NCBI GenBank assembly: GCA_021789595.1
Contig: JAJYJJ010000009.1
Coordinates: forward strand, 1,274-65,273
DNA from: Nitrospirota bacterium
GTDB taxonomy: Bacteria; Nitrospirota; Thermodesulfovibrionia; UBA6902; JAJYJJ01
Length of the DNA: 64,000 bases
Reading direction: 5' to 3'
Part shown: positions 1-30,128 of the stretch, one piece after another
How positions within the stretch are numbered: the stretch's first letter is position 1
Layout of the letters: the number at the start of each line of letters is the position of its first letter
Position numbers and translations under genes: made by a program
Notes under the pieces: generated by a model
The model's input: the letters and a program-made list of their open reading frames with translations, nothing else
What the model was told of the DNA's origin: nothing
Databases searched by the model: none

Positions 1-616
1 TATAGTTGATACTGCTGTATAAGCGGACTATAGAATTCTTCGAGTTCCCTGGAATGTAAAGGAGACAAAAAATATCTCAACTGACAAATCAAGCCAGACA
101 GATGCCGAAACTTACATTGCAGGCTTTAGGGCGGACAGCAGTAATTTTTACCTGACTTATATTCAGATAGATGTTCCAAATATTGACAATGGAGGCTTTG
201 CCGCGCCGCTTAAGATTTACGATAAAAATTTTAATTTGGTCGTGAATGAAAAAGTAAGAACTAAACAGTCAGGAGAGCCTGGTCTTCGACCCTCTTTGGA
301 ATTGAGAGGCGACACGATTTTTGTCGGCCATGACTCCGGAGCGTTAGGTAAAGGAAACGTAGAGGTTTATATTTATAAAATAAAAAGATGCAAACCGGCG
401 AATATGTGAAAAAATCACCTTAACCTTAACAGACAAGCCGGTGTTTGCGGAAGAGAAATGATAGAGCGAAAGCATTTTATTCTTCTGTAGAGTTGAAAAT
501 CCTTAATGCGGCGCGCCAACTTAGTTGGCACGAAAAATTGCGGCGGCGAAAAAAAGAAGCGACGAAAACGAGGACAGAAATGGGATAAAAAACACCAGTA
601 TCGAATGCACCCGGAA

Positions 617-20844: not shown

Positions 20845-21111
20845 ATGTTCAGGCTGAAACTTATAATCTTTATACTGCTTGTGTTTCTGCTCTTTATATT
20901 TCCTGTCGGCTTTCTTTTTGCTGACAGAACTGGCGATATTATAGCTGCAGGGACAGCAGGCTATGTCCTTGGATGTGCCAGTGCCCCTCATTATTATGAC
21001 TATTACCCTGCGCCTTACTACTATGTCCCCCCTCCCCCACCTCCTGGTTACTATTACTATTATGCGCCGCCACCAGTGCCGCCACCTGGCATATATTATT
21101 ACGGTTATTAG
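20845..21111 (+). CDS. small membrane/secreted protein with Tyr/Pro-rich C-terminal tail
   Basis: 88 aa. Hydrophobic N-terminus 'LKLIIFILLVFLLFIFPVGFLFA', then 'HYYDYYPAPYYYVPPPPPPGYYYYYAPPPVPPPGIYYYGY'. The antisense ORF 20719..21117 has no such features. Confidence 0.35.
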   Translation: MFRLKLIIFILLVFLLFIFPVGFLFADRTGDIIAAGTAGYVLGCASAPHYYDYYPAPYYYVPPPPPPGYYYYYAPPPVPPPGIYYYGY

Positions 21112-21176: not shown

Positions 21177-22022
21177 ATGGTTATGTTGAACCTTGATTTA
21201 AAGCCTGAGGATTTTACCATTCCTCCCCATGACAACATGGAAGACTTTCACGGTGACTTAAATAATCCTGACATAGTTATTTTCCTTAACGGCAACCAGT
21301 GGATGATAATGAAAGAGTTGCTTGCCGCTTTTCAGCAGGAACATCCAGAAATCAAGAATATCTTTTATGAGACTATCCCGCCTGGAATACTCTTAAAGCA
21401 GATTCGTCACGGCGCCCTGAAGGTTGGGGAGCTGGTTATCAGTGTGCCGCCTGATATCTATACAGCAGGCAGAGAGGAGATGGACTCTCTGTTAAACGAT
21501 GGCTTTATCAAAGAGTATGTTCCTTACGCGAAAAACCATCTGGCTATCATGGTGCCCGAAGGGAACCCGAAGGAGATCACGGGCTGGCGCGATTTAGGGC
21601 GTCCGGGAATCCGGGTGGTTATGCCCAATCCGGTAACGGAAGGTGTCGGTCGTCTGGCACTCAAGGCCATGGAAAAAGCAGAAGGACGTGAACTTGTGGA
21701 GACCGTTATGGGGGAAAAGTTGACCGATGGAGAGACCTTCCTTACCCATATCCACCATCGCCAGACTCTCCTTCTTCTCATGGATGGAACGGCAGATGCC
21801 GGGCCGGTATGGATCAGCGAAGCGCTTTATCAAAAGAGGATAGGAAGCCCTCTGGACTATGTGCCCATCCCGGAAGGACAGAATCAGAGCGGCACATATT
21901 TCATCGCCATCGTAGAGAAGACCGTGCAGCACAGGGTCGCGGCAGAGGCATTTCTTGACTTCATGAGGAGCAGGCAGGCTCAGGATATATATGCCGGCTA
22001 CGGCTTTAGCAGCGCGAATTAA
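21177..22022 (+). CDS. ModA/WtpA-like periplasmic-binding-fold protein (molybdate/tungstate type) lacking a signal peptide
   Basis: 281 aa resembling the ModA N-lobe ('IVIFLNGNQWMIMKELLAAFQQ...ETIPPGILLKQIRHGA'). No N-terminal signal peptide. GC content is locally high. Confidence 0.45.
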   Translation: MVMLNLDLKPEDFTIPPHDNMEDFHGDLNNPDIVIFLNGNQWMIMKELLAAFQQEHPEIKNIFYETIPPGILLKQIRHGALKVGELVISVPPDIYTAGREEMDSLLNDGFIKEYVPYAKNHLAIMVPEGNPKEITGWRDLGRPGIRVVMPNPVTEGVGRLALKAMEKAEGRELVETVMGEKLTDGETFLTHIHHRQTLLLLMDGTADAGPVWISEALYQKRIGSPLDYVPIPEGQNQSGTYFIAIVEKTVQHRVAAEAFLDFMRSRQAQDIYAGYGFSSAN

Positions 22023-23026: not shown

Positions 23027-23518
23027 ATGAAACCATATCAACTGATTGCGGCCAGCGCGCTGGCACTTATGGTCCTGGCCGGTTGCACCACCACCGGCAT
23101 GGGGCGCGGAGAAATGACCGACAAAGGAAAACCCACCGAGCCCGTTCTGTTCAGTTGGAAAAGCACGGACGGGGGGCTGTCCGGCTCGATGGTGGCCACA
23201 CTGCCCGACGCGACCTACACAGGTAAGTTCTTTCAGATTACCCGTCAGACGCAGCGCGAAACCCTTGCTCCGCTGTGGAACGGCTGGAACGCAGGATGGT
23301 ACGACTGGCCGTACTGGAGCCAGCCTTATCCGGCCACGTACGATGCGACGCAGTTCATTACGTACTACAGCGGCAAAGTGGTTGCCAATCTTGAAACCAA
23401 CGGCGGCCAGCGCATGCGCTGCCGCTTCCATCTTGCCAATCCGACAAGCGGTATGGCTGATGGCGGCCAAGGCGAGTGTCAACTCTCCGGCGGTCGAATC
23501 ATTAACGCAACATTTTAA
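23027..23518 (+). CDS. lipoprotein of unknown function (Trp/Tyr-rich)
   Basis: Lipobox 'LAGC' after a signal peptide. 163 aa in GC-rich DNA. No recognisable domain. Confidence 0.5.
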   Translation: MKPYQLIAASALALMVLAGCTTTGMGRGEMTDKGKPTEPVLFSWKSTDGGLSGSMVATLPDATYTGKFFQITRQTQRETLAPLWNGWNAGWYDWPYWSQPYPATYDATQFITYYSGKVVANLETNGGQRMRCRFHLANPTSGMADGGQGECQLSGGRIINATF

Positions 23519-23628: not shown

Positions 23629-24144
23629 ATGTCAGAGAAAAATTTGGCTGTAGCTATTTTCAACACCCACACTGAGGCTGAGGATGCTGTCAAGGAACTC
23701 CAGAAATCCGGCTTCGATATGAAGAAGCTGTCCATCGTAGGCAAGGACTATCATTCTGAAGAGCATGTGGTAGGCTATTACAATACGGGTGACCGTGTCA
23801 AATACTGGGGAAAGTTGGGGGCCTTCTGGGGTGGATTATGGGGATTCCTTTTCGGTTCCGCGTTCTTTTTCATTCCCGGGATTGGCCCCATCGTTGTAGG
23901 CGGTCCGTTGGTGTCGTGGATCATTGGCGCGCTTGAAGGTGCCGCTATTGTGGGTGGAATGAGCGCCGTTGGAGCAGCGTTATACGGTATCGGCATTCCA
24001 AAAGACAGCGTCCTCAAATATGAGACTTCTCTGAAGGCGAACAAGTTCCTGTTGGTTGCGCACGGGACGGGGGAAGAAGCGGAAAAGGCAAAAAAGATTT
24101 TAGAGACGACTAATGCAGTTGAGACAGCAATTCATCACGCTTAA
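23629..24144 (+). CDS. general-stress-protein 17M (YflT)-like N-domain fused to a glycine-zipper membrane hairpin
   Basis: 171 aa. N-terminal 'LAVAIFNTHTEAEDAVKELQKSGFDMKKLSIVGKD', then 'GAFWGGLWGFLFGSAFFFIPGIGPIVVGGPLVSWIIGALEGAAIVGG'. Confidence 0.45.
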   Translation: MSEKNLAVAIFNTHTEAEDAVKELQKSGFDMKKLSIVGKDYHSEEHVVGYYNTGDRVKYWGKLGAFWGGLWGFLFGSAFFFIPGIGPIVVGGPLVSWIIGALEGAAIVGGMSAVGAALYGIGIPKDSVLKYETSLKANKFLLVAHGTGEEAEKAKKILETTNAVETAIHHA

Positions 24145-24242: not shown

Positions 24243-25118
24243 ATGGAAAAAAATAAGGTTATATTTGCCCTTGGGATAATTATCATTTTTGCCATTGTAG
24301 GCGCCGGCATCTCCATCGTATTCGGCAGATTTGTCAGCTTCAGCAACATCTCCAGCGTTGTTGCGGCCTCGGAAAAAACCGATGTAGCCGTACAGACGGG
24401 TATGGCAATCACAGATGCAGGCGGCGCAATCGCCTTTAACCCGCCCTCTGTCCAGGATGCGCCGGCAAACATAAAGGACGCGGTCATGCTCGGTCACAAC
24501 ATCCTGACGGATACCCGGAAATATGCGGGTCAATACGTTGGGAACAAGCTCGACTGTTCAAACTGTCATTTCAAGGGGGGCATGACCCAAGGCGGGAAAA
24601 ACGGAGGCCTCTCGCTTGTGGGAGTGGGTGCAACCTATCCCCAGTACAAGAAGAGACAGAACTATTCCGTGGACCTCGTGACACGAACAAATGACTGTTT
24701 TGAAAGGAGCATGAACGGCAAACCCTTGCCCGCTGACAGCCGGGAAATGATAGCTATAGTCACATATTATCAGTGGATATCAAAAGGACTGCCCATATAT
24801 GCCGATATCCCCTGGTTGGGGGTGAAACACCTCAAGAGTGGTCATAAGCCGGATGAGGTAAAGGGGAAGCAGGTCTTTGCAGACAAATGCGCCATGTGCC
24901 ACGGCAATAACGGCCAGGGAACCCCGGCGGCGCCGCCTCTGTGGGGAAAGGATTCCTTTAACGATGGCGCGGGTATGCATAAGCTGGAAAACCTTGCAGC
25001 CTTTGCCTATAAAAATATGCCAAGGGGAAATCCTGACCTTACCCCTGAAGATGCCCTGGATGTAGCAGCGTTTGTTACAACCCAGCCAAGACCTCATTTT
25101 GTGCCCAGAAAGGGATAG
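24243..25118 (+). CDS. membrane-anchored dihaem cytochrome c, TsdA/SoxA-like (thiosulfate dehydrogenase family candidate)
   Basis: N-terminal TM anchor and two CxxCH motifs (CSNCH, CAMCH). 'YVGNKLDCSNCH' and a free Cys in 'TNDCFERSMNG' resemble the TsdA haem-1 region with its Cys ligand (recalled from memory). Confidence 0.5.
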   Translation: MEKNKVIFALGIIIIFAIVGAGISIVFGRFVSFSNISSVVAASEKTDVAVQTGMAITDAGGAIAFNPPSVQDAPANIKDAVMLGHNILTDTRKYAGQYVGNKLDCSNCHFKGGMTQGGKNGGLSLVGVGATYPQYKKRQNYSVDLVTRTNDCFERSMNGKPLPADSREMIAIVTYYQWISKGLPIYADIPWLGVKHLKSGHKPDEVKGKQVFADKCAMCHGNNGQGTPAAPPLWGKDSFNDGAGMHKLENLAAFAYKNMPRGNPDLTPEDALDVAAFVTTQPRPHFVPRKG

Positions 25119-25126
25119 GAGGATTT

Positions 25127-26482
25127 ATGCAGTTTCCCATCTTTCAGGTACCGCATTTAGGCAACGGCATGACAATCGCACTGGATGCAGTGCTGCATGT
25201 GATCATAAGCCACGGACTGGCTATCGGCGCAATAACGCTCATCGTAATAAGTGAATACATGGGATTTAAGAAGTCTTCCCAGGACTGGGAAAATTTTGCA
25301 AAGGACTTTCTGAAATTCACCATTATAATCACCACAGGTGTCGGAGCGGTAACGGGAGTCGGCATATGGCTTATTACCAGCGCCCTTTCACCCCTTGGCA
25401 TAGGCTCTATGCTTCGTGTCTTTTTCTGGCCATGGTTTATTGAATGGATGATATTCACCAGTGAGGTGATTTTTCTTCTCCTCTACTACTTTACCTGGGA
25501 TAAATGGACAAGTGAGAGGAAGAAGCAGCATATTTATCTGGGAGCCGGCTATACCATTTTCGCTCTTTCCTCTGCCTTTCTGATTACAGGTATACTGGGT
25601 TTTATGCTTACTTCTGATGGCTGGCCCTGGGATAAAAGTATCTTATCTGCTTTTTTTAATCCAAGTTACCTACCTCAACTGCTATTGAGGATAGGTATTG
25701 CTTTAGCGCTTGGTACCGTATTCTCTGTGGCATTTCTTCTTTTTACCAGAAGGGAAAGTGGCTTCCGCAAAGAAGCCCTGAACTTTTTCGGAAAGGTTGC
25801 CCTGCTTTCATTATCGGCAACGGTTATATTCACCTGGTGGTATTTCAGCGTCGTCCCTTCATCGTTCAAAACCCACGCTAAATTTGCTGCCCTGACTTCC
25901 CACTTTTCCCAGCAACCTGAAATTTTCTGGATTGCGAATATTACCGCTGCTTTCCTGTTGTTCGTGTTAGCCCTGTCTGCCATGAGAGGTTCCACCCTTC
26001 TGGTTAAAATTCTCATTCTCCCTGCAATTTTGATATCCATGGGTTTTGTAAGTGAATTTGAACGTATAAGGGAGTTCATCAGAGGTCCTTACCTCATGCC
26101 GGGTTACATGTATGCTAATCAGGTATTGTTGAAGGAGACCCCCGTATTGGACAAAGAGGGGTTATTGAAGAATGCATACTGGTATAATTCAATCACAAAG
26201 AGACCTGATGTAGTGAATCAGGGCGCATACCTCTTTGCACAGAACTGTTCAGCATGCCATACCATCGGAGGAATTAATGACATTGCAAAGAGGGTGCAGG
26301 GAAGGACAGAGGATGGAATCTTTGTCATCCTCGGCCATACCCATGATATGGTTCCCTTCATGCCTCCTTTTTCAGGGACAGAGCAGGAGCGGAGGGTAAT
26401 GGCAAGCTTTCTCTATAAGCTATCAACGGGAAGGCTCAAAATGGGTGCACCTTCCCGTTTTACACCAGGGAGGTGGGAATGA
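25127..26482 (+). CDS. CydA-like (cytochrome bd subunit I N-terminal half-like) membrane domain fused to a C-terminal monohaem cytochrome c
   Basis: TM1 His 'DAVLHVIISHGLAIG', 'GVGAVTGVGIW' and 'FTSEVIFLLLYYFTWDKW' parallel CydA 'MYHFLFVPLTLG', 'GVATGLTMEF' and 'FLESTFVGLFFFGWDRL'. The C-terminal 'CSACH...MPPF' is a class I cytochrome c domain. Confidence 0.5.
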   Translation: MQFPIFQVPHLGNGMTIALDAVLHVIISHGLAIGAITLIVISEYMGFKKSSQDWENFAKDFLKFTIIITTGVGAVTGVGIWLITSALSPLGIGSMLRVFFWPWFIEWMIFTSEVIFLLLYYFTWDKWTSERKKQHIYLGAGYTIFALSSAFLITGILGFMLTSDGWPWDKSILSAFFNPSYLPQLLLRIGIALALGTVFSVAFLLFTRRESGFRKEALNFFGKVALLSLSATVIFTWWYFSVVPSSFKTHAKFAALTSHFSQQPEIFWIANITAAFLLFVLALSAMRGSTLLVKILILPAILISMGFVSEFERIREFIRGPYLMPGYMYANQVLLKETPVLDKEGLLKNAYWYNSITKRPDVVNQGAYLFAQNCSACHTIGGINDIAKRVQGRTEDGIFVILGHTHDMVPFMPPFSGTEQERRVMASFLYKLSTGRLKMGAPSRFTPGRWE

Positions 26483-28071
26483 ATAGCCTCTTCGACATAA
26501 TGCTCTCAAAACCGCTTCCGGATGCGTGGCTCCGTGGTCTCCTTTTTGCCTCCTTCACCCTTCATATGGTATTTGTTCTCTTAACTTTAGGGACTGCCAT
26601 CCTTTCTGTTTACTATTTTATTGATGCCCGATGGACCGGTAAACCGGAAGAGTTGCGTATGGATAAGAGGATATTAAAGACCTTCATGGCCCACAAGAGC
26701 CTGGCAGTGGTGCTGGGAGTTGCACCATTGCTTCTGATCCAGATCGGCTTTACCGTCCCCTTCTTTACCGGGGTTAATCTACTTGCGCCTTTATGGATGT
26801 TAGTCATTGTATTTCTGGTAGTGGCATTTTTGTCCTTTGATGCCCTGGGGCACAAAATGTATGTGCACCCTTATTTACATCTGGTTTTTGGCATCATTGC
26901 CCTCCTCCTTCTCCTTGCAGTTCCTGCAGTATTCGTCGGGATTCTGGTGGTGGCAGAAAATCCGGAAAAGTGGTTAACAATAATCAGTAGTGGCTATAAG
27001 CTAAGGGGTTCCTTAGCCTTACACTGGCTTTTCAGATACCTGCATGTCCTCGGGGCTGCGGTTGTATTCGGTGCAGCATTTCATTATTTCTTCTCAGCAA
27101 AAGATGAAACCGAAAAGAGGTCACTGCTTAAATGGATCATTGCCGGGATATTGCTTCAGATCATCCTCGGCACAACGCTCTACAGTTCTTTATTAGAAAA
27201 ACCTGATTACATCACCAATGCTTCATTATTTATTGGCGTCGTCGGTGTCGCATTATTATTGTGGATAATTTATCTCAATGTGGGTAAAAAGAGCACTTTA
27301 GATATCAGAACAGTACTACCTCTCTTAATGCTCATACTTATACCAATGCTTTTAGCAAGACAATTTATTCAGTATAAGAAGTTTCTGCCCCTTGAAAAAC
27401 AGTTACAGGCAAACGCTCAAGCTTACCAAAAAGAATTGCAGCCCTATTCCCAGGAAGCCCTTAATAAATATAAAGACGATTTAAAAGTGGTCTATGACAA
27501 TGGCGAGACCATATATTCAAAGAGCTGTGCCTTCTGTCACGGAGAAAAGGCGGATGGTATCGGACCAGAAGCAAAAAACCTTACAATCCCTCCGGAAGAC
27601 ATATCGGCTATAAGAACCACAAGAACGCATCTTCATAAGATACTAGTCGAAGGCGTTTCGGGCTCTGCCATGCCTTACTTTACTTTTTTTGATAGGTATA
27701 AAATAGACAGCTTGATCGATTATCTGGATAAAAAATATCATGTTCTAAGTTTACCTGAACCTCTTCCTGTTAAAATCTCTGATACAGCATTGCAACAGGC
27801 CCAGAAAATTTATAATGAAACCTGCTCCGGGTGTCATGGAATGGATGGCAGAGGTTCAGCGCTTTCAAAAGGTTTTCAGCCCCAGCCTCCGGACTTTACC
27901 GTTTACAGCTTATCGCCTAAGAGGGCCTTTGATGTCATAACAAAAGGTTATCCAGGGACTGCGATGCCATCATTTAGCAACCTGCCGGAAGAGGTCCGAT
28001 GGAGCCTGGTAAAAATTATTAATGACAAAAGAATCCCTGAACTGACAGGAAGGGGAAAGATAAGAAAATGA
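26473..28071 (+). CDS. second CydA-like membrane domain fused to a C-terminal CcoP-like dihaem cytochrome c
   Basis: TM1 'FTLHMVFVLLTLGTAIL' (cf. CydA 'YHFLFVPLTLGMAFL') and 'APLWML...FLSFDALGHKMY'. C-terminus has 'CAFCH...GSAMP' and 'CSGCH...GTAMPSF' haem sites. The start overlaps the previous stop by 10 bp. Confidence 0.5.
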   Translation: MGMNSLFDIMLSKPLPDAWLRGLLFASFTLHMVFVLLTLGTAILSVYYFIDARWTGKPEELRMDKRILKTFMAHKSLAVVLGVAPLLLIQIGFTVPFFTGVNLLAPLWMLVIVFLVVAFLSFDALGHKMYVHPYLHLVFGIIALLLLLAVPAVFVGILVVAENPEKWLTIISSGYKLRGSLALHWLFRYLHVLGAAVVFGAAFHYFFSAKDETEKRSLLKWIIAGILLQIILGTTLYSSLLEKPDYITNASLFIGVVGVALLLWIIYLNVGKKSTLDIRTVLPLLMLILIPMLLARQFIQYKKFLPLEKQLQANAQAYQKELQPYSQEALNKYKDDLKVVYDNGETIYSKSCAFCHGEKADGIGPEAKNLTIPPEDISAIRTTRTHLHKILVEGVSGSAMPYFTFFDRYKIDSLIDYLDKKYHVLSLPEPLPVKISDTALQQAQKIYNETCSGCHGMDGRGSALSKGFQPQPPDFTVYSLSPKRAFDVITKGYPGTAMPSFSNLPEEVRWSLVKIINDKRIPELTGRGKIRK

Positions 28072-29516
28072 AGAGCAGAAAGATACTTTCAATCGTTCAA
28101 ATGAACGACAGCCATGCCTATTTTGATTTACACCAGGAGATGTTCTGGCAGGGCGACCACGCGGTATACCGTCCCGCCGGAGGTTACGCGCGCATCGCCA
28201 CGATTGTAAAACAGATTCGGGCTGAGAGCCAGGGACGCATTCTCTTTTGCGACTGCGGCGATACCCTCCATGGCACCTATCCTGCCCTGGACACACAGGG
28301 ACAGGCTTTGGTCCCTGTTTTGAATTCATTGGGGCTTGATGCCATGACAGCTCACTGGGAATTTGCTTACGGTCCAAAGGTATTTAACCAGCGGGTTGCT
28401 GAACTGAATTATCCGATGCTGGCAAACAATGTCTATGATAAAGAGACAAAGAAGCCGGTCTATCGGTCGTATGCCGTAAAAGAGATTGGCGGATTACGGA
28501 TCGGCCTTGTGGGGATAGCCTCAAACATTGTGGACAAGACCATGCCGCCTTCTTACAGCGAAGGCATATTCTTTACCCTGGGCAGGGACGAACTTCCGCC
28601 AATTGTCGATACGTTACGCACTCAGGAAAAGGCAGACTTAATCGTTTTGGTCTCGCACCTCGGGTTCCCTCAGGAGATGAAGCTTTTGTCCGAGGTGCAC
28701 GGCATAGATATCTGTCTCAGCGGCCATACGCATAACCGCCTGTACAAGGCGGTTCTCAATGGGAAAACTATTGTTATACAGTCAGGCTGCCATGGTTCTT
28801 TTTTGGGTCGCCTTGACCTGGAGGTGGAGGATAGACAAATCGTCGTTTACCGGCACCGGTTGATTGAGGTTGAAGCAGCAATACAACCTGACCCCGCAGT
28901 AGATGACCTGGTAAGACAGGCGCTCGCACCCTATAAGAATGACCTCTCAGAGGTTGTCGGTGAAACTGCCACAGCACTCAACCGAGGAACAACCCTGGAG
29001 GCCACAATGGACAATTTTCTCCTTCAGGCTTTACTCGAAAGCACCGGTGCGCAATTAGCATTTTCGAATGGCTGGCGCTACGGCGCACCGATAGTTCCCG
29101 GGAAGATAACCTTGAATGACCTTTACAACATTATTCCCATGAATCCACCTGTCTCAACAGTAGAGTTGGCAGGAGAGGAAATCAAGGTAATGTTGGAGGA
29201 GAACCTCGAAAGGACGTTTTCATGCGATCCGTACCAGCAGATGGGAGGGTATGTCAAGCGCTGTATCGGTCTTAATGTATACTTTAAGATAGAGAACCCT
29301 CCAGGACACCGTATTCAAAAACTATTTGCAGGCAATGAAGAGGTACAGCCCGGCCGGCACTACACAGCGGCATTCGTCACGCCGCAAGGGGTCCCTCAGA
29401 AATACGGCCGCAATCGCGAAAACCGGTCGGAACGAACCATAGATGCGCTGCGAAAATATCTGGTGGTGCATCGCCCCCTTCATGCAGAACTCAGAGGCAC
29501 ATTTGTGGCGGTATAA
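28068..29516 (+). CDS. 5'-nucleotidase/SoxB-family dimetal phosphoesterase (no signal peptide)
   Basis: Calcineurin-like motifs 'MNDSHAYFD', 'CGDTLHG', 'GHTHNRL' and a 5'-nucleotidase C-domain. Overlaps the upstream gene by 4 bp. Confidence 0.6.
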   Translation: MKSRKILSIVQMNDSHAYFDLHQEMFWQGDHAVYRPAGGYARIATIVKQIRAESQGRILFCDCGDTLHGTYPALDTQGQALVPVLNSLGLDAMTAHWEFAYGPKVFNQRVAELNYPMLANNVYDKETKKPVYRSYAVKEIGGLRIGLVGIASNIVDKTMPPSYSEGIFFTLGRDELPPIVDTLRTQEKADLIVLVSHLGFPQEMKLLSEVHGIDICLSGHTHNRLYKAVLNGKTIVIQSGCHGSFLGRLDLEVEDRQIVVYRHRLIEVEAAIQPDPAVDDLVRQALAPYKNDLSEVVGETATALNRGTTLEATMDNFLLQALLESTGAQLAFSNGWRYGAPIVPGKITLNDLYNIIPMNPPVSTVELAGEEIKVMLEENLERTFSCDPYQQMGGYVKRCIGLNVYFKIENPPGHRIQKLFAGNEEVQPGRHYTAAFVTPQGVPQKYGRNRENRSERTIDALRKYLVVHRPLHAELRGTFVAV

Positions 29517-29636: not shown

Positions 29637-30128
29637 ATGAAAAAGATTTTAGCAATATATATTTTAGTTATGGGAGTGTGTTTATTTTCCACGGCCGGTT
29701 TTGCCGAAACCAATTTAATTGTTTTGGAATCACCTTATCCCTTCGATAAGACCGTCAAGGCTATTGAACAGGCAATCCGACCTAATAATATGGGGATTAC
29801 GGCAAAGATTAACGCACAGGCTAATTTGGCGAGAGCAGGAATCAAAATCAGAGGAAACCAGATTTTTGAAATTTTCAGACCCGATTATGCTAAACGTATT
29901 TTTGATCGAAATCTCCAGGCCGGGATTGAGCCGCCTCTACGGATTTATATCTACGAAGACGGAAATAAAACCTTTGTTGTCTATCGAAAGCCGTCTTCCA
30001 TCTTCAAACCTTACGATGATCCTGTTTTGATGGATATTGGAAAGAAGCTTGATTCAATTTTAGAAAAGATCATCAAAATAGCCTTTAGTACGGCGCATGG
30101 CAAAGGAGGCAGAGGGGAAACAGAATGA
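29637..30128 (+). CDS. DUF302 domain protein with signal peptide
   Basis: 163 aa with signal 'MKKILAIYILVMGVCLFSTAGFA' and a DUF302-like core ('PFDKTVKAIEQAI...GIKIRGNQIFEIFRPDYAKRIF...PLRIYIYEDG'). Confidence 0.55.
   Translation: MKKILAIYILVMGVCLFSTAGFAETNLIVLESPYPFDKTVKAIEQAIRPNNMGITAKINAQANLARAGIKIRGNQIFEIFRPDYAKRIFDRNLQAGIEPPLRIYIYEDGNKTFVVYRKPSSIFKPYDDPVLMDIGKKLDSILEKIIKIAFSTAHGKGGRGETE

Follow-up and report, generated by a model that had tools for sequence, protein, structure and literature searches.

A TsdA-type cytochrome gene is regularly paired with two genes for cytochrome bd-like OR-C1 proteins in a Nitrospirota bacterium and in other phyla

Introduction

The window analysed here, a stretch of 64,000 nt on contig JAJYJJ010000009.1 of a Nitrospirota bacterium (assembly GCA_021789595.1) in whose numbering all coordinates are given, contains a gene for a TsdA-type dihaem cytochrome c, followed by two genes for membrane proteins that resemble cytochrome bd subunits and end in haem c domains. 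This raises the question of which genes of the locus belong together and from where to where electrons would flow through their products. A preliminary description of this DNA had listed five open reading frames (ORFs) on the plus strand, with two CxxCH motifs in ORF1, one in ORF2 and two in ORF3, and all of them were found where they had been placed. It had regarded the whole block, including a SoxB-like hydrolase (ORF4) and a DUF302 protein (ORF5), as one horizontally acquired electron-entry module that is possibly linked to thiosulfate or sulfur. The link to sulfur is supported by the pairing with TsdA and by sulfur-related accessory genes; the extent of the module had to be revised.

Results

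A three-gene cassette recurs across phyla

Related loci were fetched for comparison (designated by L-numbers), and 80 loci from reference genomes of many phyla made up the comparison set. The order tsdA, OR-C1a, OR-C1b, where the latter two names denote the families of the bd-like proteins, was present in 67 of the 80 loci with the TsdA-type gene directly upstream and on the same strand, and this bears out the co-occurrence with tsdA that the preliminary description had put forward for checking. OR-C1a and OR-C1b stood together wherever the contig sequence allowed, and an unbiased clustering of the flanking ORFs returned tsdA, OR-C1a and OR-C1b as the only broadly conserved genes. The comparison shows that the core of the locus is a three-gene cassette consisting of a tsdA-like gene, then OR-C1a, then OR-C1b. 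Phyla that carry it include Nitrospirota, Bacteroidota, Desulfobacterota, Chloroflexota and Planctomycetota, and it is also found in cultured Desulfovibrio. Cultured carriers are, for example, Desulfovibrio falkowii, Pseudodesulfovibrio karagichevae and Desulfogranum japonicum, besides the D. desulfuricans strains in the list of Murali et al. Judged by the sequences, what is new is that OR-C1a/b are regularly encoded together with an intact TsdA, the bd-like pair itself having been published already. A literature search turned up neither a report of TsdA in connection with a bd-like protein nor one of a pairing of TsdA with OR-C1a/b.

A decayed cassette was seen at L089:5152-6842, where a full OR-C1b (68% identity) is preceded by only a 35-residue remnant of OR-C1a and followed by genes for DsrE, TauE, SoxB-like and DsrE proteins.

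ORF1 belongs to the TsdA family

Pfam assigned a SoxA-TsdA_cyt-c domain (E = 1.9e-12) and, as second domain, Cytochrom_C to ORF1. In a phmmer search of PDB sequences the best match was TsdA of Allochromatium vinosum (4wq7, E = 1.5e-42, residues 76-287 against 20-238), in line with the TsdA-like dihaem cytochrome proposed before, and the TsdBA fusion of Marichromatium (5lo9) matched with E = 1.6e-27. In an alignment of 65 sequences, comprising 64 cassette-linked homologues and A. vinosum TsdA, residues H109, R138, R148, C152 and S156 of ORF1 fell on H53, R82, R92, C96 and S100 of the A. vinosum enzyme and M259 on its haem-2 ligand M209. The free cysteine in the motif NDCFERS, to which attention had been drawn earlier, therefore aligns with the haem-1 ligand Cys96, and the Cys/His ligation pattern of haem 1 is present. 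Both CxxCH motifs and the equivalents of His53, Cys96, Ser100 and Met209 were invariant in all 65 sequences; Arg92 was kept in 64 and Arg82 in 54 of them. By these alignments ORF1 belongs to the TsdA family of thiosulfate dehydrogenases/tetrathionate reductases, and its catalytic His/Cys haem is intact. It is exported to the periplasm and probably tethered to the membrane.

SoxA was considered as an alternative identity and rejected, with a TIGR04484 score of 67.5 bits against a cut-off of 110 and no SoxA structure at E<=0.01 in the PDB search. SoxX- or SoxYZ-like genes were not seen among the scanned neighbours.

Like TsdA of A. vinosum and C. jejuni and the TsdBA fusion of M. purpuratum, ORF1 has two haems, a His/Cys-type haem 1 and the conserved Cys/Arg/Ser site, and its haem 2 is of the His/Met type, but it differs from these systems by its N-terminal hydrophobic anchor. 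HiPIP and a monohaem cytochrome c have been described as redox partners of TsdA, and in M. purpuratum this part is played by a fused dihaem unit, TsdB. These partners are soluble or fused, whereas the partner encoded by the adjoining genes here would be a membrane-bound bd-like pair with haem c domains.

The position of Lys208, directly before the haem-2 methionine, is occupied by Asn in ORF1 (N258) and by Asn, Phe or Tyr in 38, 20 and 6 of the 64 homologues. The Asn-Met arrangement also occurs in the C. jejuni enzyme, whose bias is toward the reduction of tetrathionate; since the TsdA family is bidirectional, the Asn leaves the direction of ORF1 unfixed. It does lend weight to a chain running in reverse, which is weighed below together with the proteins downstream.

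The active-site residues bear on another alternative, in which the OR-C pair is a generic cytochrome c oxidase for O2 detoxification and the TsdA-like protein is no thiosulfate enzyme but a mere entry cytochrome for electrons from the periplasmic pool. This would agree with the 12-13 loci in which OR-C1a/b occur alone or with a small monohaem cytochrome c, with the Desulfovibrio cassette, which has no sulfur-related neighbours, and with the proposal of cytochrome c alone as donor by Murali et al. (10.1101/2021.01.16.426971). However, an active-site signature with invariant Cys and Ser and with Arg92 in 64 of 65 sequences would be unexpected in a plain electron carrier, and sulfur-related accessory genes recur next to the cassette across diverse taxa, so that we consider a generic oxidase quite unlikely.

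ORF2 and ORF3 have the fold of cytochrome bd subunits

The membrane domains of ORF2 and ORF3 matched no family in Pfam and NCBIfam, neither Cyt_bd_oxida_I nor the unrelated NnrS and DoxX, and PF01654, the model of canonical CydA, gave no match at E<=0.1 for either protein. Residues 19-188 of ORF2 were aligned by phmmer with Geobacillus CydA (5doq_A, E = 2.8e-13), and hhalign of the ORF2 family against E. coli CydA (E = 6.4e-5) placed H24, E106 and E113 on H19, E99 and E107. These three residues are conserved in 76-77 of 77 OR-C1a sequences. ORF2 also has equivalents of CydA H126 and S140 (H135 and S149), and Leu187/Arg188 are found at the position of H186, where there is no His. Structure models of ORF2 and ORF3 were predicted from alignments of database homologues. 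The AlphaFold model of ORF2 (mean pLDDT 66.5, helices 85-94) contained, according to DSSP, eight long helices before residue 335, followed by a monohaem cytochrome c domain, and the top 14 Foldseek matches in the PDB were all bd-oxidase subunits, CydA first and then CydB. Together with the phmmer match this substantiates the resemblance of ORF2 to CydA that the preliminary description had read from its motifs. Nothing resembling a Q-loop was found in ORF2, and the periplasmic loops are short in the predicted model.

For ORF3 the same claim had to be qualified. Direct sequence and profile searches, including one with an OR-C1b profile against PDB sequences, matched the dihaem c domain and no bd protein, but profile-profile alignment of the ORF3 with the ORF2 family was in register (95% probability, E = 2e-8; membrane domains alone E = 8e-5), and in a Foldseek search with the ORF3 model (pLDDT 81.7; eight long helices, then a C-terminal dihaem cytochrome c domain) ranks 2-16 were all CydA or CydB chains. 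A cytochrome b of the bc1 type, suggested by a weak match to 6kls_B (E about 1e-3), was discounted because the fold search returned bd subunits only. Leu103 and Leu110 of ORF3 occupy the positions of the proton-channel glutamates E99 and E107. H31 and H191 are kept in 65 of 65 OR-C1b sequences, and both glutamate positions are hydrophobic. In a weak alignment (E = 0.043) H191 of OR-C1b falls, in similar sequence surroundings (RYLHVLGAAVVFGAAF vs KFVHTVASGYVTGAMF), on H186 of E. coli CydA, a ligand of haem b558, and we regard the equivalence of the two as tentative. A further histidine, H204, is conserved in 59 of 65 sequences and, by the helix boundaries of the model, would lie near the cytoplasmic end of transmembrane helix 5 (TM5).

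On the basis of profiles and predicted models, ORF2 and ORF3 are paralogous eight-helix proteins with the fold of cytochrome bd subunits and without the canonical Q-loop; their haem c domains, one in ORF2 and two in ORF3, are of the His/Met type. Since both models have eight helices, the C-termini should lie in the periplasm, as the attachment of haem c needs. The earlier picture of two tandem bd-fold proteins, each fused to periplasmic c-type cytochrome domains, agrees with the fold and with the CxxCH motifs.

The bd superfamily was divided into qOR, OR-C and OR-N by Murali, Gennis & Hemp 2021 (bioRxiv 10.1101/2021.01.16.426971), who defined OR-C1a and OR-C1b from sequence. As described there, OR-C1a and the adjacent OR-C1b have eight helices each and lack a quinol site, and their C-terminal part is periplasmic and contains CxxCH; E99 and E107 are kept in the "a" and lost in the "b" members, and H19 is present throughout. 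Every testable feature was found in the two proteins, and ORF2 is therefore classified by sequence as OR-C1a and ORF3 as OR-C1b. The OR-C1a reference of that study has H24, E105/E112, S145 and H131 where ORF2 has H24, E106/E113, S149 and H135, and both are without a His at the H186 position. The haem c counts of one in "a" and two in "b" are among those listed by the authors, and no structural difference from their proteins was noticed. ORF2 is 46-48% identical to Desulfovibrio genes of the kind given in their Table S7. They counted 532 OR-C copies in 24,706 GTDB genomes; the present database search gave >1,600 OR-C protein clusters. They inferred that cytochrome c is the donor to OR-C and that what the shared four-helix core has conserved is the reduction of O2. 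In the text and supplement of the preprint there is no TsdA/SoxA-type partner, no thiosulfate and no mention of OR-C1b residues such as H191, and our literature search found no OR-C biochemistry. The assembly had been thought uncharacterised, which holds for its biochemistry but not for its architecture, named as OR-C1a/OR-C1b in 2021. None of the outcomes that the preliminary description had named as refuting it was obtained in the form stated there.

Compared with canonical CydAB (E. coli bd-I, Geobacillus bd), ORF2 shares the subunit fold and the TM1-4 core with the equivalents of H19, E99, E107, H126 and S140, and ORF2 and ORF3 would share the pseudo-symmetric two-subunit architecture. In contrast to CydAB, there is no Q-loop, no His at H186 in ORF2 and only eight instead of nine helices, a CydA paralogue that has an H19-type His of its own serves as second subunit, and haem c domains are covalently attached. 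Of the haem-ligand sets of a canonical bd quinol oxidase (H186/M393, E445 and H19) only the H19 equivalent is present. The covalent haem c domains and the lack of a quinol site make cytochrome c rather than quinol the likely donor, and a cytochrome-c-fed bd-like complex, as suggested before, is the natural reading. More similar in one respect is CydAA' (qOR4a/qOR4b) of Caldivirga maquilingensis, for which O2 reduction was shown by Murali et al. (10.1101/2021.01.16.426971): in place of CydB it has a CydA paralogue in which H19 is retained and the glutamates of the proton channel are missing. Its CydA, however, still has the quinol site and the b558 ligands, and CydAA' has neither haem c domains nor a TsdA partner.

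The unusual haem complement also raises the possibility that the pair reduces another oxidant, such as H2O2 or NO, or that it serves only as a transmembrane electron conduit. Besides the difference from canonical bd, including E445 and M393, for which no equivalents were identified, the conserved H204 with its presumed place near the cytoplasmic end of TM5 and peroxide-related genes near some loci would fit such a role. On the other hand, the conserved features are exactly the ones on which characterised bd oxidases depend for reducing O2 and supplying the protons, and positive evidence for a non-O2 substrate was not found, which makes this alternative improbable.

The SoxB-like gene and other accessory genes

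ORF4 gave 352.5 bits with the SoxB model TIGR04486 (cut-off 550), matching model positions 109-518 of 556, and was aligned with Thermus SoxB (2wdc) at E = 3e-51, SHWEW being paired with AHWEF. Its dimetal motifs NDSH, GD, AHWEF (the SoxB-type H-W-E), SH and GHTH are complete. An export signal was not found: the N-terminus is not hydrophobic, the DxH metal motif starts at residue 14 and the ORF is already the longest possible. ORF4 thus has the metal motifs of a SoxB thiosulfohydrolase but neither its equivalog score nor its export signal, and the SoxB-family dimetal hydrolase of the preliminary description, presumably cytoplasmic, is upheld together with its 4-bp overlap with ORF3. All homologues have 482 aa and are 82-93% identical across Atribacterota, Actinomycetota, Ignavibacteriota, Bacteroidota and Desulfobacterota. 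This level of conservation in the family (window copy and L081-L089) is unusual, and a DUF202 membrane protein is often encoded directly upstream.

SoxB-like genes were present near the cassette in about 11 of the 80 loci, directly downstream in 4 close relatives, and the 4-bp overlap of ORF3 and ORF4 type was seen here and in L001, L007, L019 and L059. When loci were fetched starting from the SoxB-like gene, six independent contexts were obtained, in which DUF202 was the commonest neighbour, besides P-type ATPases, Usp, glycan phosphorylases and a Ni/Co transporter; one of the six is the decayed cassette with DsrE and TauE, and another contains a CCP-TsdA fusion with catalase and superoxide reductase. 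ORF5 matched PF03625 (DUF302, E = 2.5e-12) and has a signal-like N-terminus, as had been noted for a secreted DUF302 protein; a DUF302 homologue was found near the cassette in 0 of the 80 loci. These counts speak against the earlier inclusion of both genes in the module, that is, against a dedicated five-gene periplasmic electron-entry unit made of TsdA, both bd-like proteins, the SoxB-like protein and DUF302. What could be said for such a wider unit is the overlap of ORF3 and ORF4 in five loci including the window, the OR-C remnant or CCP-TsdA fusion in two of the six independent contexts, and the example of Erythrobacter flavus 21-3. In this organism TsdA and a SoxB-domain hydrolase annotated as "5'-nucleotidase" are encoded together without SoxYZ, and genetics place the hydrolase on the tetrathionate made by TsdA (Zhang et al. 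2020, PMC7608252). Here, too, a TsdA and a SoxB-domain hydrolase are encoded near each other, but the hydrolase belongs to a distinct, highly conserved 482-aa clade, there are no sulfur dioxygenases near the cassette of the window and the link between hydrolase and cassette exists in some lineages only. The missing signal peptide of ORF4 is hard to fit with a role like that in E. flavus, as TsdA and the haem c domains are periplasmic, and elsewhere the SoxB-like gene mostly has neighbours of an unrelated kind, connected with stress or glycans. A dedicated five-gene unit is thus very unlikely; ORF4 is accessory and lies outside of the cassette core, although its loose link to TsdA-type cytochromes is a recurrent one.

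The most frequent accessory gene of the cassette, absent from the window, encodes a secreted DsrE/DsrF-like protein of about 190 aa and lies directly 5' of the TsdA gene in 10 diverse loci (e.g. L003:8477-9070 and L049:8304-8936 (-)). Others are a second DsrE-like group (5 loci), TauE (5), a Tat-exported SUOX-type molybdoenzyme (4) and a DoxD-DoxA fusion. Homologues of the SBP_bac_11 solute-binding protein are encoded in the cassette flanks of 8 loci (L001, L003, L010, L059, L063, L064, L065 and L076), and from all these variable accessory genes the window has only the SoxB-like gene and the binding protein. The signal peptide of the latter is absent in the window copy and in L001 and present in the homologues that adjoin the cassette in L003 and L010; the window copy has no adjacent ABC transporter partner.

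Four loci encode four-haem fusion proteins of about 645-700 aa that join a dihaem cytochrome c peroxidase (CCP_MauG) to a TsdA module (L064:13573-15507, L076:13594-15525, L023:4566-6644 (-) and L087:5239-7230). The TsdA module keeps the Cys, Arg, Ser and Asn-Met signature in all four, and the fusions adjoin the OR-C cassette (L064, L076, L023) or genes for DUF202, SoxB-like, catalase and superoxide reductase (L087). A peroxidase only accepts electrons, and since it consumes them the TsdA module of these fusions must be the donor. From their domain composition the fusions are candidate thiosulfate:H2O2 oxidoreductases; we met no description of them in the literature, in which no search was aimed at these fusions.

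Proposed electron transfer from thiosulfate to O2

How could the products of the cassette work together? We propose, with a probability that we put a little short of even, that TsdA oxidises thiosulfate and that the electrons pass via haem c into a bd-type site at which O2 is reduced. According to this model, TsdA would oxidise two thiosulfate to tetrathionate, and electrons would travel from TsdA haem 2 to the three haems c of OR-C1a/b, from there to the membrane haems and finally to O2. The two paralogues ORF2 and ORF3 would form a CydA/CydB-like heterodimer and divide the tasks of CydA between them: a low-spin entry haem would be housed in OR-C1b, whose H191 would lie at the place of the b558 ligand or close to it, and OR-C1a, with H24, E106 and E113, would contain the haem at which cytoplasmic protons are used to reduce the oxidant. 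Such a division follows if the equivalence of H191 and H186 holds. The quinone pool would be bypassed and charge would be separated as in a bd oxidase. In the mostly anaerobic hosts the likely role would be a thiosulfate-driven scavenging of O2 with some energy conservation, and the SoxB-like and DsrE-like proteins, TauE, the SUOX-type molybdoenzyme and the solute-binding protein would be variable accessories that handle sulfur products. The thiosulfate/tetrathionate couple is able to reduce bd-type haems and O2. It is quoted at +198 mV in the abstract of PMC9562282.

The main competitor is the reverse chain, in which menaquinol, or some other donor in the membrane or cytoplasm, feeds the bd-like pair and the electrons leave via haem c to a tetrathionate-reducing TsdA. 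In addition to the bidirectionality of TsdA and the Asn at the Lys208 position, it could draw on the fact that the hosts are mostly anaerobes, often without a bc1 complex, and on the OR-C1b histidine that may correspond to a ligand of the quinol-facing haem b558. Yet the predicted models show no Q-loop and a short TM6-TM7 loop, and the invariant E106/E113 channel and the H24 site suit a proton-consuming reduction at a buried haem and not the oxidation of quinol. Moreover, the CCP-TsdA fusions point to TsdA modules of this type as donors, and the accessory genes for DsrE, SUOX-type, DoxDA and SoxB-like proteins are oxidative sulfur genes. Electron flow from thiosulfate to O2 is favoured over the reverse because of the invariant glutamates of OR-C1a, these oxidative accessory genes and the O2 reductase activity of CydAA', and we consider a reverse chain unlikely.

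Several observations weigh against the proposed flow from thiosulfate to O2. TsdA is not obligatory, as the 12-13 of 80 loci without it demonstrate; the haem-2 environment of ORF1 is Asn-Met, as in the reduction-biased C. jejuni enzyme of a bidirectional family; most hosts of the cassette are strict anaerobes; equivalents of the second active-site ligand E445 and of the b558 methionine M393 were not identified; the match of H191 with H186 is weak, and another profile alignment was off by one helical turn; and O2 reduction by OR-C enzymes, none of which is known to have been purified, is predicted from conserved residues.

If the proposed direction is true, traces of O2 would allow many anaerobes, sulfate reducers among them, to oxidise thiosulfate without quinones. 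This would matter for O2 tolerance where oxic and anoxic zones meet and for a cryptic cycling of tetrathionate in sediments. The OR-C branch is widespread, and the pairing with TsdA gives this orphan oxidase family a concrete substrate that can be tested in cultured Desulfovibrio relatives. The apparent division of the roles of CydA between two paralogues is a useful case for the evolution of bd oxidases by duplication.

A more specific form of the proposal is a self-contained, quinone-independent thiosulfate:O2 supercomplex of the tethered TsdA, three haems c and a bd-type heterodimer with the entry haem in OR-C1b and the O2 site and proton channel in OR-C1a, which we put forward with more reserve, as a possibility of roughly one in three. 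A supercomplex of this kind would provide the OR-C branch with its first assigned function and a physiological electron donor, and TsdA with a new type of partner. With only two enzymes, it would be a minimal chain for aerobic respiration in many "strict anaerobes" such as sulfate reducers, Thermodesulfovibrionia, anaerobic Bacteroidota and Chloroflexota, and the CCP-TsdA fusions would be a parallel thiosulfate:H2O2 system.

Probable exchange of the cassette core

The block had been described as visibly more GC-rich than the core genome and hence as horizontally acquired. The GC argument proved weak: the GC content is only slightly raised, 0.472 compared with 0.442 in the window, 5.6% of windows of the same size are as GC-rich, and ORF2 (0.45) and ORF3 (0.43) are at or below the window mean. 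Exchange as such is supported by another observation. Nucleotide identity to the closest metagenome-assembled genome (L001:9141-14390) amounted to 63% at the 5' end of ORF1, 97-100% over ORF2 and ORF3 and 90-94% in ORF4, with flanking genes for the solute-binding protein and a glucan phosphorylase at 70-77%, and this mosaic pattern supports a recent exchange of the cassette core by recombination or transfer. Island-bounding repeats were looked for around the cassette and none were found.

Layout of the locus and neighbouring ORFs

The coordinates are collected in Table 1. For ORF2 and ORF3 an overlap of 10 bp had been given; 4 bp are likelier. Since the homologues of ORF3 have 520-530 aa and align from residue 3, the start of ORF3 is most likely ATG 26479, with GGGAGG upstream and ATGA overlapping the stop of ORF2. 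In a scan for promoters and terminators the counts were near shuffle expectation, so that operon boundaries were not derived from it, and an Rfam scan from 20 to 32.5 kb of the window gave no RNA element.

Table 1 Features of the locus in window numbering. Residues of ORF3 are counted from 26473.
Feature	Residues	Coordinates	Strand	Length	Remarks
SBP_bac_11 binding protein, molybdate/sulfate/thiosulfate-type		21177-22022	+		Pfam E = 6.4e-48; weak NCBIfam matches ModA, CysP
ORF1, TsdA-type dihaem cytochrome c		24243-25118	+	291 aa
ORF1, hydrophobic anchor or signal	1-34				N-terminal
ORF1, haem 1 CSNCH	105-109	24555-24569
ORF1, haem-1 ligand	Cys152	24684-24710			Coordinates of RTNDCFERS, which contains Cys152
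ORF1, haem 2 CAMCH	216-220	24888-24902
ORF1, Asn-Met	258-259	25014-25019			Haem-2 side
ORF2, OR-C1a-type bd-like subunit		25127-26482	+	451 aa
ORF2, H24	24	25196-25198			E. coli CydA H19
ORF2, E106 to E113	106-113	25442-25465			E. coli CydA E99/E107
ORF2, haem c site CSACH	374-378	26246-26260			Pfam Cytochrome_CBB3 match
ORF2, further key residues	H135, M412
ORF3, OR-C1b-type bd-like subunit		26473-28071	+	532 aa	Longest ORF (GTG 26473); 530 aa from ATG 26479
ORF3, H31	31	26563-26565
ORF3, RYLH191	H191	27034-27045
ORF3, haem c site CAFCH	352-356	27526-27540
ORF3, haem c site CSGCH	451-455	27823-27837
ORF4, leaderless SoxB-like dimetal hydrolase		28068-29516	+	482 aa	4-bp overlap with ORF3
ORF5, secreted DUF302 protein		29637-30128	+	163 aa	Neighbour only

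Three further ORFs were noticed upstream of the cassette. An 88-aa ORF (20845-21111), whose N-terminus is signal-like and whose tail is extremely rich in Pro and Tyr (YYYVPPPPPPGYYYYYAPPPVPPPGIYYYGY), sits just upstream of the gene for the solute-binding protein, in a different frame. A lipoprotein-like ORF of 163 aa (23027-23518) matched nothing in Pfam or NCBIfam, has the highest GC content of the region (0.583; GC3 0.677) and is absent from the related loci. Directly 5' of the cassette, 23629-24144 encodes a YflT/ActD-like protein of 171 aa with relatives at L007:4599-5135, L059:8138-8674 and L006:8789-9322; identity is 94-95% in two Nitrospirota loci and 74% in Desulfobacterium N47. Along with HdeA, two Usp genes and glucan phosphorylase, this gene appears to be carried by the same island.

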